Shown piece by piece: positions 1,451 to 41,968 of a stretch of DNA of 64,000 nucleotides. Below the pieces are notes generated by a model, which did no database searches, was not told the DNA's origin, and saw nothing but the letters and a program-made list of their open reading frames with translations. The position numbers and the translations under genes are program-made. How positions within the stretch are numbered: position 1 is the stretch's first letter; every line of letters begins with the position of its first letter. The stretch covers positions 26,352,001 through 26,416,000 of the forward strand of contig NC_087436.1 of assembly GCF_036321535.1 (NCBI RefSeq), in the 5' to 3' direction. The DNA is from Camelus dromedarius. Lineage: Eukaryota.

Positions 1451-4400
1451 TATTATGGCATATTTCTCATGAGTAAATCAATGGATGTTTCTACAGCAAT
1501 TATGCTTCATTTTTTCTTTTGATCTTAAGCTCACACAGTTCAGATATATGTTTAATTCATATTATTATATGCCTCAAGAATAGAAAGTGTTGTCCTATCT
1601 AACTTGTAATTAATAGAGATATGCAAGAAGTAGTGATTTAACATCTTTGCATTGTCAATCAAGACACTTTCCTCCTGGCAAGAGCCTTAATATCAATAAA
1701 GGGCAAACCCAAATTCAATTATTTTCTTTAACTGCCTCAAGATCTTTTCTCTAATATTCTGTCACCACTAAATTATCCTAAATAGAATTTGGTTAATTTC
1801 CAAGTAAGAAAACTAGCCTGGGATACCTCAGAAGGAGATTTTCAGGTATAGCTTTATCTGCCAGGTTCTTTCTGATGTTTTAACCTTGGCGTATGAACAG
1901 AAGCTCTGACCTCATCTAGAACATGTTACTATCTCTCTTCTTCTCCACTTCCTGATATCTACAGCCCCTCAGGAGCAGCAAAGGAAAAACTCACAAACAG
2001 GTTCCTTTTTTTAATCTAAAAATTTTACTTTAAAAAAGCCCAATAATGAGTTTTCCTAACCAAAACTTTATCTTTACCTGACATAAATCCCCCTTCCCTA
2101 AATTTTGGAAATTCTGTGACCACTTACTTTTCTTAATTTCTCTTCCTGTTACATTGATATATTATTACCTCACAGAATTCTTAACTCAGCACATTGTGAA
2201 AACAGTAAGAAAATGGGTGGTAAGAATTATAATTTTCAAATGCACTTTGAAATGATAACTATGTATCTCTATATATTATATAGATATGTATATACATAGA
2301 GAGGTTAAGCAAACAGCAACGAAGGTTGATTCTAAAATCAACCTTTATTGCTCATCACTGAAGAATTGGTGATAAGATAATTGATTTGGCTAAGAAAATG
2401 GTGACAGTCTAGTCTAGATTCTTCTTTGTTTTGTCTGATTTTCCTCCTGTCTCATGTCATTTTTCTCACTTCTGAGATTTATGCTTCTTGCTTCAGGACC
2501 CTTATTACTAATTGTTTGACAGAGAGGCCTCATCATCAAAGTACTAAATTTTTGAATCCTTGCAGTTGCAAAGTTGAAAAGGAATAAAATATTTTTATAA
2601 TGGGAAATTATTTAGTACTAAAATATCAACTCCTAACACTAGTTCCTATTCAAAACCTACCCCCCACAACATACACATGCACACTAAATATAAGGATTAA
2701 TCCCTGAAAATATCTTGCCAATTTTTGGATGCTATAAACATCTCATGGAAGAAAGAAAATAAAAAAGGAGACTGATTACAATGTGAATTTGCACATATCT
2801 GGGCAAAGATACAGAATTTCATGATTCAACAAAGTGAGATAGAGCAAAATTATTTACTACTTAAAACCATCGAAAATTGTGTATATGGCAGAGTTCACAG
2901 GTTTACAATTGAAAGGACTATTGACAAAGATGATGATAAAGAGCCTGTGAAAGAGATGATTTAAATATCAAGTGAAGATGAGAAATCTGTGAAAAACAGA
3001 TAGTCCTCAATTATTTTTACTGATAATCATTTTGGGTATCTTTTTTTTAGAAGTCAAATGTGAAGTGAAGAGTGTTATGTGGTGCCATCCTACGGCAATA
3101 AAATGATAATAACATAAATAAAATATTAACACTTGAGTCATTTTTGTTTAACTTGACATTCAGAATCCTGCTGTGGACCAGTTCCCAGCTAGTGAGCCAA
3201 TTCTTAATACAATAATGTAGAGAGGTAATGGCAAAATAGAGAAACAAAGGAAAAGGAAGGAAGGAAAGTAGGAAGCCAAGAAGGCACAGGACTTAGAGTG
3301 ACTTACAATTAACTATTTAGATTACAGCTTTCCAAATATAGTTTCAGAATTCACTGCCTGTAGAAGTAAGTTCTATCTTTAGGCAAACATTAAATTTGGC
3401 AAGTATTAAATTTGCAGGTAGAATCAAAGTACCACGACCCCTATATATTGCTTCCACCTTGCAGAGAACAATATATTATTACTAAGACTGTTATCATTGT
3501 AAGTCGTAAAGGATTGTTACAACACTATTAAATTTATTAAAGGAGATATTATACAGAAATTTCTGGGTGAACTGCCTGACTCATAGTAGGGATTGAAAAT
3601 TCTTAGTTCATTCTTTTTTGAAGATAGCAGGAGACTTAAGATAACAGTGTATTTGTTCCCACTAATAAATAGATTGAGTATATGGGTCAAATTTAGGCCC
3701 TTGATTATTCATGGGGGAGAAGATCAATTGTTACTGCATTTCTTCCCACTTCTTCATCCCTCTTCTTTCAATTTTCAGAGAAGGAAAACTTATATTTGCA
3801 GAGTTATATCTTCATGATTTCTCATCATTACTTTTCAACTTTGACCTTTAATTTCACTTGTACATACTTCTACTTCAATTTCATTTTAGTATATAACTAT
3901 TTTTAAATATTATGTATATTCTTTTGTACTCGATTCATTTTATATGACATAATTTTATTTAAACAGAAATAAAATAATTGATTTCTTAATTTATTTAAAC
4001 AATCAATTGACATAGATATCAGATGGAAACTAAGGCATTTACTCAAAAGAAATGTTAATGATGTTTCTTGAAATGTATATTCATACTCCAAAGAACAGAA
4101 TTTTAAGAGGAGAATTGAGGAACATTAAAAATTATAGTGTCAGCATTCATGTAATGTTGCTTTTATATCACTTATTTTGCAAAAATAAAGAAAAAAATCT
4201 TCATTTCTCCTCACAGAGTTATTTTTAACCAGGTGTCAGAACTAAGCATTGCTATCAGAGTGCTGAGTTTGTTGGAAACAGAAAATGCTTCTTTAAGGTA
4301 CAAGTAATATACAGTGAATCTGCTTGATAAACATGATTGCCTAGTCAAAAATTGCATTCTGCCAGAAAGTAACTGTATTTAATATGGCTACACAAATGTA

Positions 4401-20330: not shown

Positions 20331-21917
20331 AGTATTATAGCAGCAATGTTAAAACAACATGAATATAAACCACAATAGCAACAATCTACAAGGAAACTCC
20401 AATACAAAATAGGGATTATTTTAAGGTTGTGGTTTTCAGGCTGTTCCCCAAATCTCTCCCTCTTTTGTTGTATTTTCAATTTTCTAAATAACCATTTTTG
20501 TTTTGTAATTACTTTTTAAAAAATTATTACCTTTTTTACTAGGAAAACATTTTCCTATTTTACTTATTTAAAAACTCAAAGTTCACTGATTAAAATTTTG
20601 CTTAGAATTAAAACATACATCCAGCTTATTGCTATAATAAATTTTTGGCTCCCTAGTTAGTGTGGATTACAAATCTCCATAGTACATTTAGAATTTTTAA
20701 AGCAATGCATTTGATTTAATTTTGAGATTAACTGCAGGAGGCAATCCTGTGTATCAGCAGGATCAGCATATGTATTCAGGTAGATTGTCCAGGTGGTGTC
20801 AGTAACTGCCCACCTCTAACACCAACTCCCACCTCTTATCAAGCTGCATCTGCTGATTCGTCCAAGCATTTGAACTCTGTTCATGGCTGGGATTCAGATA
20901 TGTACAGGGGGATCTAGTGAACCCATCTTGGAGGAGCCAAGTAGCCTTTCAGAAAGAAATCCAGCACAATTCACAGGACCTGGAATGGAACACTCAGTCG
21001 TAGACAGCTCTGTGTCCTAAGAAATGATTGCTCATAAGAAAGAAAGAGTTTTAAGATCTGGGCCCTTAAACAACTTTGTCACGGGATCTCCCTAAAATAC
21101 TCATAGTAGGGAAAGGACACTTTCCCTACTAGCAAAGAGAAATGGGAACTTTATCCATGTCATGCAGTTAGGGTACATCATTTGACAGCCCAGTAAAGGG
21201 GCAGATATGCCAGCAGTGCATGAAGGAGGGTGGGCATCTGTGGCAGATTGTGCACAGCAATGTGGGCATGGCCTAAGCAGCACCCCCTCCACCCCTCCTA
21301 CAAATGGATGTGGCTTATAAAGTTCCTGGGTGACAAGAGTGGTCAGTGGCAGTGGTGTCTCCTGAGACTGCGGGAATATGGTGCAAAAGCCTGGGGACTG
21401 TAACCCAGGGGCTTGAACAATAAGTTTCCACAGTGCATTGAATACTCTGGGAACTGAAAAAAAGTAAAAGAAAAAGAAATGGAAAGAAACCTGAAAAAAC
21501 AATGGCCTGCTGCATTTTTGCAGTTAAGATATCATCCATCTAGCATGCCATGAATATGACTTTTAATGTGATTTAATTAGGCTGGTTCGGTTTAAGGACA
21601 TTCAAGTAACTTATTTTTCCTCTTTCATCTATCAAGTGGCAAGTGAAGATGTATGTGTTACATCTATATCATGTTTTTTGCAAGATTATAGTTAAGTAAT
21701 GCTCAATACATTTGCAATTACAGTACGTTAAAATAGTCTATTTTATGCTGATGCAAACTCGACCCAAAATACTTGTTACAAATTGCATTTACGTTTTCAA
21801 TATTTTAAGAAAGATTTGAGTGTGTTAATGTCCCTAGAAATAATTCACCATTCTCTTGGTTGTCAAAAAATAAAATAAATTTGGAATTACAGAGCATGTG
21901 TGAGCCCTGAATCAGAG

Positions 21918-22038
21918 CTGGAAGATACCTTAGAGATAATGCACTTCAAGGTTCTCATATTATATGCAACAGATATGCAAAAGCTACTGTAGAGAATTAA
22001 TTAACTTGCCCAAATCACATAGCTAGTTAATAACATGC
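21918..22038 (-). repeat. MIR-like fragment; copy 1 of a 121-bp local duplication
   Basis: Matches 22683-22803 at 112/121 nt by eye; reverse MIR-like motif 'taacttgcccaaatcacatagctagttaa'. Confidence 0.85.
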
Positions 22039-22441: not shown

Positions 22442-22682
22442 TTTTGGGGCCCAGAGTAGGCTACTCCAAATGTGCCTCAATAGCATATCAATTATTTTAA
22501 ATTAAAATTACTTAAGAAATGACCAATACAAGAGGGACACTCTGGCCTTCTCTTCTGTCTCCCTGAAAGTAGGAGGTAAAGCTCTTATGTGAAAAATGCA
22601 CTCCCTGCACCTGGAGGTGGAAGGACACCCTTAACATCAAAGATGATAGGAAATTCAGGCCAAGAATCCTATGTAAACAAAC
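22442..22682 (+). mobile_element. ERV1 LTR (MER34-like), 5' half only
   Basis: Collinear with the 5' half of the LTRs at 39778 (+) and 54289-54834 (-); stops abruptly at 'atgtaaacaaac'. Confidence 0.8.
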
Positions 22683-22803
22683 CTGGAAGATGCCTTAGAG
22701 ATAATGCACTTCAAGGCTCTCATATTATATGCAATAGATATGTAAAAGCCAGTGTAGAGAATTAATTAACTTGCCAAAATCACATAGCTATTTAGTAACA
22801 TGC
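22683..22803 (-). repeat. Copy 2 of the 121-bp duplication
   Basis: Direct repeat of 21918-22038 at an offset of 765 bp. Confidence 0.9.
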
Positions 22804-24062: not shown

Positions 24063-24228
24063 CCTAAAAACTGGATACTGAATTATTTGGGACTTTTATT
24101 TTCCTATGAATGAAAAACACCAGGTAACCATTATAAAGTAAAATAAGACATTTTTTTAATACCTTGCAAGTATACAATGTTTCTCAAGAAGATTTTAAAA
24201 TGCCTCTATCATATGAATTGAATACCAC

Positions 24229-24694
24229 TGGCAATGAAAAAAATTAATCAATAGTCAATCTAAGAAATAAATGGGGAATTTTATTTGAGCCAACTTGAGG
24301 ATTATAACCCAGGAGCTAGTCTCTTAGAGAGCTCTGAAAACTGTTCCAAAGAGGTAAAGTGAGAAGGCCAGTATATATGTGATTTTGGCAAAGGGGTCCG
24401 TGCAGTCAAGCTCACATCTCAGTAGAAGGTTGCTGCTAGCTTTCAGGAACAGACATCGTAGTTAATGATTCAGTGCTCTTATAAGTATGGGAAGATGCAA
24501 GAAACTGTGTTCACAAAATCTTATCCTAAAATATTTAGTTATTTTGAGGGCCAGTTCTGTTGGTTATCCCAGAGCACAAAGTGCCTCATCCTGATCTCCA
24601 CTCTGAATACCTTTTGGGTTATATTTTATGTCAGCTAGTGCAGTGACTAATGACTTGATTCTTGTAGAACTGGATAGTGATTCTTTATTTTATA
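24229..24694 (-). mobile_element. ERV1 3' LTR (related to 39853-40286)
   Basis: Minus-strand AATAAA ('ttttatttgag'); shares 'gaggattataacccagga..agtctct..gagagctctga' and 'gtatgggaagatgcaaga' with the 39853 LTR; preceded on the minus strand by a polypurine tract. Confidence 0.8.
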
Positions 24695-24706
24695 GTTCCT
24701 TCTCTT

Positions 24707-24729
24707 TGCAGTCAAATGCTCTACCACTG
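24707..24729 (-). pseudogene. tRNA-Cys(GCA) fragment (nt 13-35), tailless retropseudogene
   Basis: Minus strand CAGTGGTAGAGCATTTGACTGCA is identical to the D-arm-to-anticodon part of mammalian tRNA-Cys-GCA as I recall it; flanked by 17-bp direct repeats at 24691-24707 and 24730-24746 (15/17 identical). Confidence 0.88.
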
Positions 24730-24746
24730 TACAATTCCTTCTCTTT

Positions 24747-25570
24747 GAATCTTAATTTCGACCAAGGTTTGGGAAGCATTTTGTGATCAGTTTGTCCCAC
24801 GGTGCTAGGAATGCTTATTCCTAGATCAGGGGAGGATTTTGTTGATAGGCTACTCAATGTAGCTTATTACTGGACTAGGCCCTGTTAACAGTAACCAAAA
24901 GCCTTGAGACCACCTATCTTACTAATTATTATGATCCAGGAAATTGTCCCTCTTGTTCCTTCTTCCCATATCTAGAGTTACACTATTACAATCATTGATC
25001 TTTTAAAACTATATTTTTGATCAATCATTTCATCTAATCATCATTAATTTTATCTGAGGCTCAGTCACACATTTGGTAATGCAAGAAACAATAATCTTGT
25101 AAAATAAGCAGAATACAAGTAACATAGCTAGTAACATTAATAAAGTCATTAAGTAAATATTTAAGTTAAGAACTTCCATTAGATGTAGCCCAGTACCTCT
25201 CCAGTTCCTCTGACCAGTCTGTTCTGCACCAGTCTGTTATTGCATCTTTAAGGCTAATAATATATTGGCATTGTACATAAAGTTCACCAAAGATGTCTGC
25301 TTGTACAAGGCAAGCAGTGGGTCATCGGGACCCCTTATAAGATTGAGATAGGAGTGCTGTCTTCTAAAGAGTTACATGGCTGGTGACAAAAAAGGAAAAA
25401 CTGATCTTTATGGTTGAGTAGGTATTTCTGCCATTGGGGAGGTCTGGTTAACATATAATGCAGCTGCACAATGCACACTACAGGGAAGGGAGAAGGCCAA
25501 AGGGCAGAGGGAAAGTTTTATGCTTGAATTTTCATTGTCTTACCTTAAAGTGTGAATTTTTATGTCATCA
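24747..25570 (-). mobile_element. ERV internal sequence (3' end), degraded
   Basis: Contiguous with the PPT and 3' LTR; no intact ORF; right boundary approximate. Confidence 0.5.
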
Positions 25571-26784
25571 CCATATATTTCCTTTAAATTAAAAAATCTA
25601 GAGTATATTAAATTTCATTTTATTCAAGACAGTTTGGCCATTGTTAAAAACATACTGGTAATTTGTACAGAATTTGGGAAATATATTATTGATAACTCAT
25701 TCCTTTACAAACATCAGTAGGATGTATATGCTGTTTTCTTTATTTTTTATAAATTAGCTACTCTTAAAACATCTCAATTTTTAAAAAGTAAGAAAATTAA
25801 TTGGCATAATAGTTGATGATTTAGTTCCCTTAAATCATTTACTGTGTCATTTCAGGGCCTTAATTAGCATAAGGTTAAAGTGCATAAGGAAAAAATTATG
25901 CTTAGCTATGGTTATAATCATTATAGCCATGATTAAGAAATGAACATTTTACTGATGAGTAGCATTGTTAGCACTATTATTATTAATTATATTCAAATAT
26001 AGGACTTAATCTTTAAAAAAATGTTTATTTTTTGTTATCTCATAAATTGTGTCTTTGGAGCACTACTACCCTTCTATTTACATAATATAGGAACATACAG
26101 GAAAAGTAAATTCAGTAATGAAATATTTTAATGTCTTATTGTAGCAGAAATATATAGATTACAAAACTAAAATTAATTTTATTTGCATACTTACAAAGAT
26201 ATCTTTAAAATAATGAAATATCTTTTGGTAATAAATGTGTCTTTTTGCAAATAGAAAACTGCTTCTTCATTTTTTTCTTATTGGCAGCATTTTGGTTTTG
26301 CATAAGTTAGTGTTTCCTGCTGTGCTAAACATTAATTCAGAAAGGATGATTGACAGCAACTTAGGTATTCAAAGGCCAAGTTGCACAGATCAGACCAGAT
26401 TAACTTCTTTACTTCCCAATATTCAAATAGGATATTTTTTTGATACCCTCAAGAGGTTTCTGGAGATTGCAGTGCATCGTTGCATCTACTAATTGCTCAT
26501 CATGTTTCTCAACCTGTATGGAAAATGACAAGTGAGATTTTTCCACAATATGCTTCTTCTACTGTTGAAGGAAATTTATTTTTTGGGAAAAAAAAAAAAG
26601 CGGGGCAATACAGCATCATTCATTGTGGTTTTGAAATTTGAAATTATATCCATAACCATATTTTCAATTATTATTTATTAATATTTTAGGACATTAAAAG
26701 TAGGAAGCATATTGACTTTTTTTCTCAGTCACTTTTCTAAGTAGTATCTCTGTAGTATCCATTTAGTTGACAAGTTATGTACTG

Positions 26785-39852: not shown

Positions 39853-40286
39853 TATCAACTGAAGAAAAATGCACAACCTAAAATTTGCGGGTTAAGTTTT
39901 ATTCAAGGAGCTTACTGAGGACTATAGCCTGGGACACAGCCTCTCAGATAGCTCTGAGGAACTGCTCAGAAGAGGTAAGGGAGGATAGAGGTAAGAAGAA
40001 GTATGGGAGTTTTGCTGGAAAAAAAAATGTAGTTAAACATCAGAAGATTTCTGCTAATCACAAAAAACCAGACATATCAAGTTAATAATGATTTCAGTGT
40101 CTTTCTATGTATGGGAAGATGCAAGAGTCTGAACTCAGTGAAATTATTTCTTAGATATGTATCTTAACTGAGGCCAGTATCCAACAAATAGAATGCTTTC
40201 TGGTTTTATCCATCCTGAATTCTCCTCAGGGTGTACCATCAGGGGTGGCTACAGTGGCTGATGGCAGGCAACATTCTTTGCTCACA
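39853..40286 (-). mobile_element. Nested ERV1 solo LTR (related to 24229-24694)
   Basis: Interrupts the host; TSD taag/taaa. Confidence 0.82.
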
Positions 40287-41077: not shown

Positions 41078-41550
41078 CTGTCAGTTTCCCACAAATTTAC
41101 TGTGTCTTTGTCTAAAAAGTATAAAAGCAGCCTGCTTTCGCCACTTCTTAGATCCCATTTCTATGAGACCATACACACAAGTTAAAATGTGTTTCCTGTT
41201 CTCCTGTTAATCTATCTTGTGTCAATTTTATTATTAGTCCAGCCACAAGAACTCGAGAAGGGTAGAAGGAAAACTCCCCCTCCTGACACCCTCATTCTCA
41301 TAGTTCTTCTTCCGTTTTTCTCAATCTTTTCATCTGGCTATCCAAATCATTTCGCATTTTCTCCTTAGATGATATTCATCCTGTATATGCCAGCACTTCA
41401 TTTGCTTGGAATGAGACTTGTCTAAGAACTCCAGCAAATACATTAATTTATCTGAATCAAAAGAACCATCCACAGGCAACTGCACAACTGTATTCTCATA
41501 TACCCATTTCAAATATGACAGAAATATTAGCTTTTTGAGAGAAAGATCTG

Positions 41551-41689
41551 GGAGGAGGGTATAGCTCAAGTGGTAGAATGCATGCTTAGCATGCATGAGG
41601 TCCTGGGTTTAATCCCCAGTACCTCCTCTAAAAATAAATAAATAAACTCAATTACCTCCCCCTCTAAAAATTAAAATAAAATAAAAAAA
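41551..41689 (+). mobile_element. tRNA-derived camelid SINE (Vic-1-like), full length
   Basis: 'ggaggagggtatagctcaagtggtagaatgcatgcttagcatgcatgaggtcctgggtttaatcccc' (tRNA-Ala-like head), A-rich tail, perfect 14-bp TSD gagagaaagatctg (41537-41550 and 41690-41703). Confidence 0.93.
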
Positions 41690-41968
41690 GAGAGAAAGAT
41701 CTGAAGGCAGTATTCTTGGCTTCCTATATTTGCCAACCATAGGGTAATGCTATGGGATTTTAAAGTCTGTATTACCCATGCTTCTTTAATAGTAAAATAC
41801 TGGATTTAGAGAGGGTGGTCTGTCAAGCTAGTATTTCAAAAGAGTAAGCAACAAGGAGGGAGACTTTTTATAACTTGGGGTTTCTCACTTGACTGTTGTG
41901 AGGCCACAGACCTTCAACTCCTCCACTCAATTCGGGAACTACCAAATATTCCTCCTTATCACCATAAT

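Follow-up and report, generated by a model that had tools for sequence, protein, structure and literature searches.

Structure of the insertion

The minus strand at positions 24691-24747 of the window, the 64,000-nt stretch of Camelus dromedarius DNA analysed here, reads as a direct repeat, a short insert and a second copy of the repeat, in that order. The two repeats form an 18-nt target-site duplication (TSD) that is identical at 16/18 positions, with two mismatches, and the second repeat directly abuts the insert, with no A-tail or oligo(A) tail between them. The preliminary description had given the same order, the same lack of a poly(A) tail and a 17-nt repeat; since C at 24747 and C at 24708 match too, each repeat extends by one base (17 to 18 nt), leaving an insert proper of 21 nt. 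One repeat and the insert together measure 39 nt (18 + 21), the usual gap length in pairwise alignments with paralogs of the host element. The TSD caller scores the locus at 13, with 0/300 mismatched-flank controls reaching 10.

Table 1. Features of the insertion, its host element and other repeats in the window
Feature	Position	Strand	Description
Host LTR-like unit	24229..25570	-	~1.3 kb; TG..CA ends; ~20% diverged from paralogs
Host 4-nt duplication, left	25571..25574	-	ATGG
Host 4-nt duplication, right	24225..24228	-	GTGG; 3/4 match to left copy
Open stretch	25033..25209	-	59 codons; hydrophobic run
TSD copy 1	24730..24747	-	18 nt, CAAAGAGAAGGAATTGTA; TT immediately before
Insert proper	24709..24729	-	21 nt, tRNA-Cys-GCA nt 13-33; blunt 5' junction; 5'-truncated
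CA overlap	24707..24708	-	tRNA nt 34-35 (last two anticodon bases), shared with second repeat; putative priming microhomology
TSD copy 2	24691..24708	-	18 nt, CAAAGAGAAGGAACTATA; 16/18 identical to copy 1
Inner LTR-like part	24229..24695	-	Follows PPT-like tract; AATAAA at 24285; 63% like repeat at 39916-40161
tRNA-Ala-like SINE	41550-41704	+	Intact; perfect 14-nt duplication; head called as a tRNA-Ala(AGC) gene by ARAGORN
Direct repeat	21910-22038 and 22675-22803		129 nt; 91% identity; 765 nt apart
LTR-like repeat pairs	35157-35733/42014-42661; 28285-28725/59228-59723; 50477-51022/60972-61529		76-90% identity

The insert proper shows no mismatch to the tRNA-Cys-GCA genes of the genome. Joined to the CA overlap, it forms a 23-mer that equals nt 13-35 of eight of the animal's own tRNA-Cys-GCA genes (23/23), its last letter being the last anticodon base, so that the 3' end of the piece falls at nt 33-35, in the anticodon loop. 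The 23-mer has 30 exact matches in the 2.3-Gb genome and its reversed control none; ARAGORN calls eight of these 30 as tRNA-Cys(GCA) genes and places their anticodon at nt 33-35. The proposed identity with tRNA-Cys-GCA nt 13-35, ending on the anticodon, thus stands when checked against the ARAGORN-called genes of this genome, and by this match the piece is derived from a cellular tRNA-Cys-GCA. We take it to lack a B box and to hold only part of an A box, and expect no function of it. At the site itself an Rfam scan gave only chance snoRNA matches (best E 4.9), a result of little meaning at such length, and the single ARAGORN call over the window was the SINE head named tRNA-Ala. Old LTR elements are abundant in the window.

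A genome-wide family with one end point

At up to two mismatches, the 23-mer has 124 genomic matches, compared with 0 for the control. When a whole gene served as the query, 26 of the 40 scored matches were near-full-length, 25 of these lying in three clusters; half-length pieces and a single 79% match came next. About 25 tRNA-Cys genes are found in the three clusters (C2, C7 and C16), and their subtraction leaves roughly 100 of the 124 matches as fragments; dispersed near-full-length copies number at most two among the 40 scored, versus ~100 half-length ones. Fifty-three of the 124 matches were read from 100 listed (30 exact and 23 with one mismatch), comprising eight genes and 45 other loci; the listed matches passed over are those in the gene clusters and all with two mismatches.

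Counted by 3' endpoint, as the preliminary description had suggested, the tRNA match stops at nt 35-38 in 45/45 non-gene loci, with identity below 15/25 beyond nt 35. The unbroken match past nt 35 measures 0 nt in 35 loci, 1 nt in one, 2 nt in seven and 3 nt in two. A pattern over nt 9-29, which takes no account of where a match ends past nt 29, yielded 11 Cys-type fragments among 30 loci read, a set overlapping the 45, and none of the 11 stops before the anticodon. A TSD scoring at least 8 flanks 38/45 non-gene loci (null 3/300), the other seven being without a convincing TSD. In 26 of the 38 copies with a TSD, it begins exactly at CA; C stands at the start in 0/14 SINE TSDs (P=1e-5), a small control whose TSD starts are blurred by A-tails. 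A is the second base in 11/14 of these SINE TSDs, as is usual in L1 targets, so template ends at nt 34 and nt 35 are not separable.

The locus had been read as a genomic fossil. The insertion is real, and the ~100 similar copies in the genome had been overlooked. Within this family, the study locus differs only by its 5' truncation, found in 3/45 copies, and by its strongly purine-rich target, the only one of 45 with at least 11/12 purines. The copy begins at tRNA nt 13, as a claimed 5' truncation implies; given how rare such truncation is in the family, the missing 5' part may instead be a later small deletion. Two fragments on C11, at 59.0 Mb (L016) and 63.4 Mb (L017), have nearly the same flanks and are probably one insertion later duplicated, so the 45 sister loci represent at most 44 independent events.

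Proposed mechanism and state of the template

Very probably, the locus is a tailless tRNA retropseudogene that arose through the action in trans of LINE-1 (L1) ORF2p. The endonuclease would nick the bottom strand at TT/CAAAG, and the freed 3' end would pair, over two bases, with the CA forming the last two anticodon bases of tRNA-Cys-GCA. Reverse transcription would then run toward the tRNA 5' end and stop early, after nt 13, with a second nick 18 nt away giving rise to the duplication. L1 ORF2p is the presumed enzyme on account of the signature, namely TSD length and the TT/CAAAG target. The TSD, the missing A-tail and the CA overlap agree with the tailless L1-type insertion proposed earlier, and the priming microhomology, then put at 1-2 nt, is 2 nt. 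At the time of insertion the host would already have been a decayed LTR-like repeat whose purine tract was simply a good target; given the ~100 Cys copies, the other tRNA types and the preference of L1 for TT/purine-rich sites, landing there should need no special cause.

The state of the template can be approached through the sister copies. Thirteen of 42 5'-complete copies match the five upstream bases of a gene at no fewer than four positions (null 7.7%, P=1e-5), the comparison drawing on the upstream bases of eight tRNA-Cys genes. These leader-bearing copies (L002, L004, L006, L007, L008, L013, L019, L020, L029, L068, L095, L096 and L107) end at the same place as the others, and 29/42 have no clear leader. 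The bases preceding nt 1 in the leader-bearing set resemble gene upstream bases and read GCAGA five times. Such gene-like bases suggest precursor templates and particular source genes, and on the 13/42 count a good part of the Cys family would come from precursor tRNA. At the study locus a leader is unreadable because the truncation removed the 5' end. G follows CA in 10/45 sister loci, and the corresponding position of SINE targets is G in 4/14 (P=0.72), so there is no excess pairing past the end.

An intact tRNA, often a precursor, primed inside the anticodon loop has about an even chance of having been the template. A precursor cut in the anticodon loop is possible at a rather low probability. 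That second reading is suggested by the one stop base, which leader-bearing copies share, and by the lack of any sign of pairing beyond it. We tentatively consider that the ~100 Cys copies may record a site-specific cut that precursor tRNA-Cys in the nucleus receives in its anticodon loop, in the germline or early embryo, with the 5' piece copied by ORF2p through a 1-2-nt clamp. If true, this would correspond neither to the published internal-priming model nor to the mature tRNA-half model.

A cleaved mature 5' half, inserted by the same L1 route and so leaving a fossil of a germline tRNA fragment, is unlikely. It would account for the very sharp end inside the anticodon loop, for the absence of excess pairing, which fits a physically ended RNA, and for the 29/42 copies with no clear leader. 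Law et al., in the accessible part of their report, suggest that 21 human tRNA/L1 chimeras had tRNA halves as templates (10.1101/2025.02.02.635956; PMC13174262), and OTTR data, as given in the available text, show that most tRNAs yield halves in mouse sperm (PMC12140624). Against it, the leaders in 13/42 5'-complete copies with the same end point mark those templates as precursors, unlike mature halves. For 5S and U2, Noll et al., in the available sections, found neither RNA ends nor tailed copies that coincide with truncation sites, and they prefer internal priming (PMC5322556). In human sperm, most 5' fragments measure 29-33 nt and about half derive from Gly-GCC, according to the accessible part of PMC11883963; the human tailless spectrum does not follow that Gly-GCC-dominated pool, on counts not normalised for gene number in which all Gly together lead. 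The cleaved 5' half put forward in the preliminary description is accordingly unproven, leader-like bases being present in 13/42 sisters and the locus having lost its own 5' end to truncation. Any other state of the template is very improbable.

The host element and the age of the insertion

Homology between the host and its paralogs spans ~25570 to 24230 and ceases at both ends in the scored matches, with 36/39 other scored matches covering at least 1,240 of the host's 1,339 nt. The 4-nt duplications of the paralogs are perfect in 7/24 and match at 3/4 positions in 6/24. A polypurine-tract (PPT)-like tract lies ~840 nt inside this 1.3-kb unit and is followed by the inner LTR-like part. The 5' part of the host shows no relationship to this inner part (score 26, against 24 +/- 3 for shuffles), so the host is not a deleted two-LTR provirus. 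No 5' LTR or second copy of the inner LTR-like part occurs within the host unit or the 64-kb window, and no parent two-LTR provirus was found among host copies.

A pair of host elements on C19, separated by 11 kb and 83% alike, was considered as a provirus and rejected, two more similar copies lying nearby. In the interval are found L1-like repeats, a chaperonin-10-like retrocopy and a GC-rich island, and no flank is common to other copies; in stretch L092, between two C19 copies, the island spans 136-1156 and the retrocopy ~3750-4080. Four host-element copies occupy ~36 kb at C19:34511456-34547016 and are 81-86% alike, closer than other paralogs.

Judged by its sequence organisation, the host would most likely be a long solo LTR with a relic ERV 3' end inside it, as if an LTR had been enlarged by taking in such an end. 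Like solo LTRs of the ERV1 type, a class in which we presume it belongs, it has TG..CA ends, a 4-nt duplication and AATAAA near the 3' end, and stands alone; it differs in being ~1.3 kb long and in enclosing both a PPT-like tract and an LTR-like part. The probable origin of this tract is a genuine ERV 3' end or PPT-LTR border. The tract is probably not a working PPT, because the host behaves as one 1.3-kb unit with its own TG..CA ends and 4-nt TSD. The open stretch upstream presumably resembles the end of an env transmembrane/tail region; Pfam returned nothing for it (E 4.5). The target had been described as an ERV PPT plus the start of the 3' LTR: the duplicated bases do comprise the PPT-like tract with the start of the inner LTR-like part, and the latter is not the 3' LTR of a two-LTR provirus.

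An insert-like match with fewer than five mismatches occurs in 0/31 paralogous host loci. In pairwise alignments, the insert is missing from 29 paralogous copies, each of which has a single purine tract; in many of them the gap is a clean 39 nt. Alignment of other element copies across the junction, proposed earlier as a check, therefore upholds a locus-specific event. In both repeats, positions 6 and 12 are A, a base found there in 6/31 and 2/31 paralogs, respectively; these shared locus-specific bases imply that the target had diverged before being copied, and they tell against a duplication as old as the element. They could alternatively have been inherited from a parent element. The insert and repeats show 2 changes versus 5.8 expected at the host's age (P=0.07), in a weak test that is biased because the locus was noticed through its perfect tRNA match. 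This test lends weak support, in the same direction as the shared bases, to an insertion later than the host element.

These observations bear on the proposal that the ERV, while being reverse-transcribed, picked up the fragment at its plus-strand priming site. The duplicated target does consist of the purine tract and the first bases of the inner LTR-like part, the locus is unmatched among its sisters in purine content, and its orientation is that of the host. The same junction nevertheless occurs at dozens of non-ERV sites, locus-specific bases are common to both repeats, and the host inserts whole, with its own ends and no second LTR. With the PPT-like tract enclosed in a complete 1.3-kb unit and the repeats sharing locus-specific changes, neither the capture nor a priming-site role is sustained, and we regard this origin as highly improbable. 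The retroviral link of the insertion is incidental.

Source and authenticity

A source in an abundant tRNA-derived SINE, instead of tRNA-Cys, has a negligible probability: the SINE head is close to the piece over nt 9-29 (1,468 matches at one mismatch, mostly SINE-type), but all SINE loci read diverge from tRNA-Cys at nt 30 and the insert matches Cys through nt 35, and no Cys-headed SINE subfamily appears among the 40 scored matches to the whole tRNA-Cys gene. Equally remote are an assembly error and a chance resemblance within a local tandem duplication: the sequence is short and its repeats differ at two positions, but the genome-wide expectation for a 23-mer match is 3-5e-5, and a 253-nt contig spanning 24568-24820 shows 0 differences in 4/4 public runs carrying four organism labels. 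The tRNA-Cys insert is apparently fixed across the close relatives sampled, the site being filled in all four runs. None of these four runs, all from close relatives, contains an empty ortholog or allele.

Comparison with known systems

The locus would be a previously unreported copy of a known class, presenting every testable sequence feature of tailless retropseudogenes. It is ordinary, being one of ~100 similar copies in its genome and belonging to a class already catalogued in humans, and represents a neutral insertion that could serve at most as a presence/absence marker. A literature search retrieved no report of the locus, nor of the pattern of leader plus sharp end, which does not by itself prove absence.

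Tailless tRNA retropseudogenes are the subject of Schmitz et al. (2004), as described in the accessible parts of PMC5322556 and PMC2912911. Noll et al. (2015) characterise them by 3' truncation at loops, no tail, an 8-35-nt TSD and target complementarity of 2-18 nt, with unprocessed tRNAs among the sources (PMC5322556, available sections), and Kojima (2010) reports short 3' microhomologies for the class (PMC2912911, available sections). The locus agrees in being 3'-truncated at a loop, without an A-tail, with a TSD inside the 8-35-nt range and at least 70% identical, with 2-nt target complementarity and with Cys-GCA, a leading source. The class derives partly from unprocessed tRNA, as the sister copies here suggest for this family.

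In the accessible material of PMC5322556, human tailless copies number 71 for Cys-GCA, 67 for Gly-TCC, 66 for Gln-CTG, 28 for Lys-CTT, 16 each for Glu-CTC, Gly-CCC and Tyr-GTA, 15 for Val-CAC, 13 for Gly-GCC, 12 for Val-AAC, 9 for His-GTG, 7 for Glu-TTC and 3 for Lys-TTT, for the 13 isoacceptors asked, not normalised for gene number and with all Gly together at 96. Of the 71 Cys-GCA copies, 36 are 33-38 nt long (supplement file 2), and 33/71 form a second length peak at 40-46 nt. Aligner overrun may explain that second peak: in the camel genome, BLAST extended three copies known to end at nt 35-37 to 42-45.

The locus departs from the Noll set in being also 5'-truncated, at 23 nt, and in coming from a different mammal. 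It would fail the Noll filter, which wants 5'-nearly complete copies of at least 30 nt; the available text notes that 5'- and 3'-truncated forms exist (PMC5322556). The Noll target consensus starts with A/T, whereas the target here starts with C.

The origin of tailless retrocopies is disputed between internal priming and cut RNA, as argued in the accessible parts of PMC5322556 and PMC13174262, respectively; PMC6789731, in its available part, concerns U6/L1 ligation and decides nothing here. The Cys family, which combines ~100 copies and a single end point with a fixed CA junction and leaders that can still be read, offers a clean test set for ORF2p priming and precursor tRNA turnover. The tRNA/LINE-1 chimeras of Law et al. 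contain, in the accessible text, a half-length tRNA ending near nt 37 and an L1-type TSD, with halves proposed as the template (10.1101/2025.02.02.635956; PMC13174262); the locus differs from them in having no L1 sequence joined. With 5' tRNA halves (tiRNAs) it shares an end in the anticodon loop, but mature halves start at nt 1, and many sister copies carry precursor leader bases.
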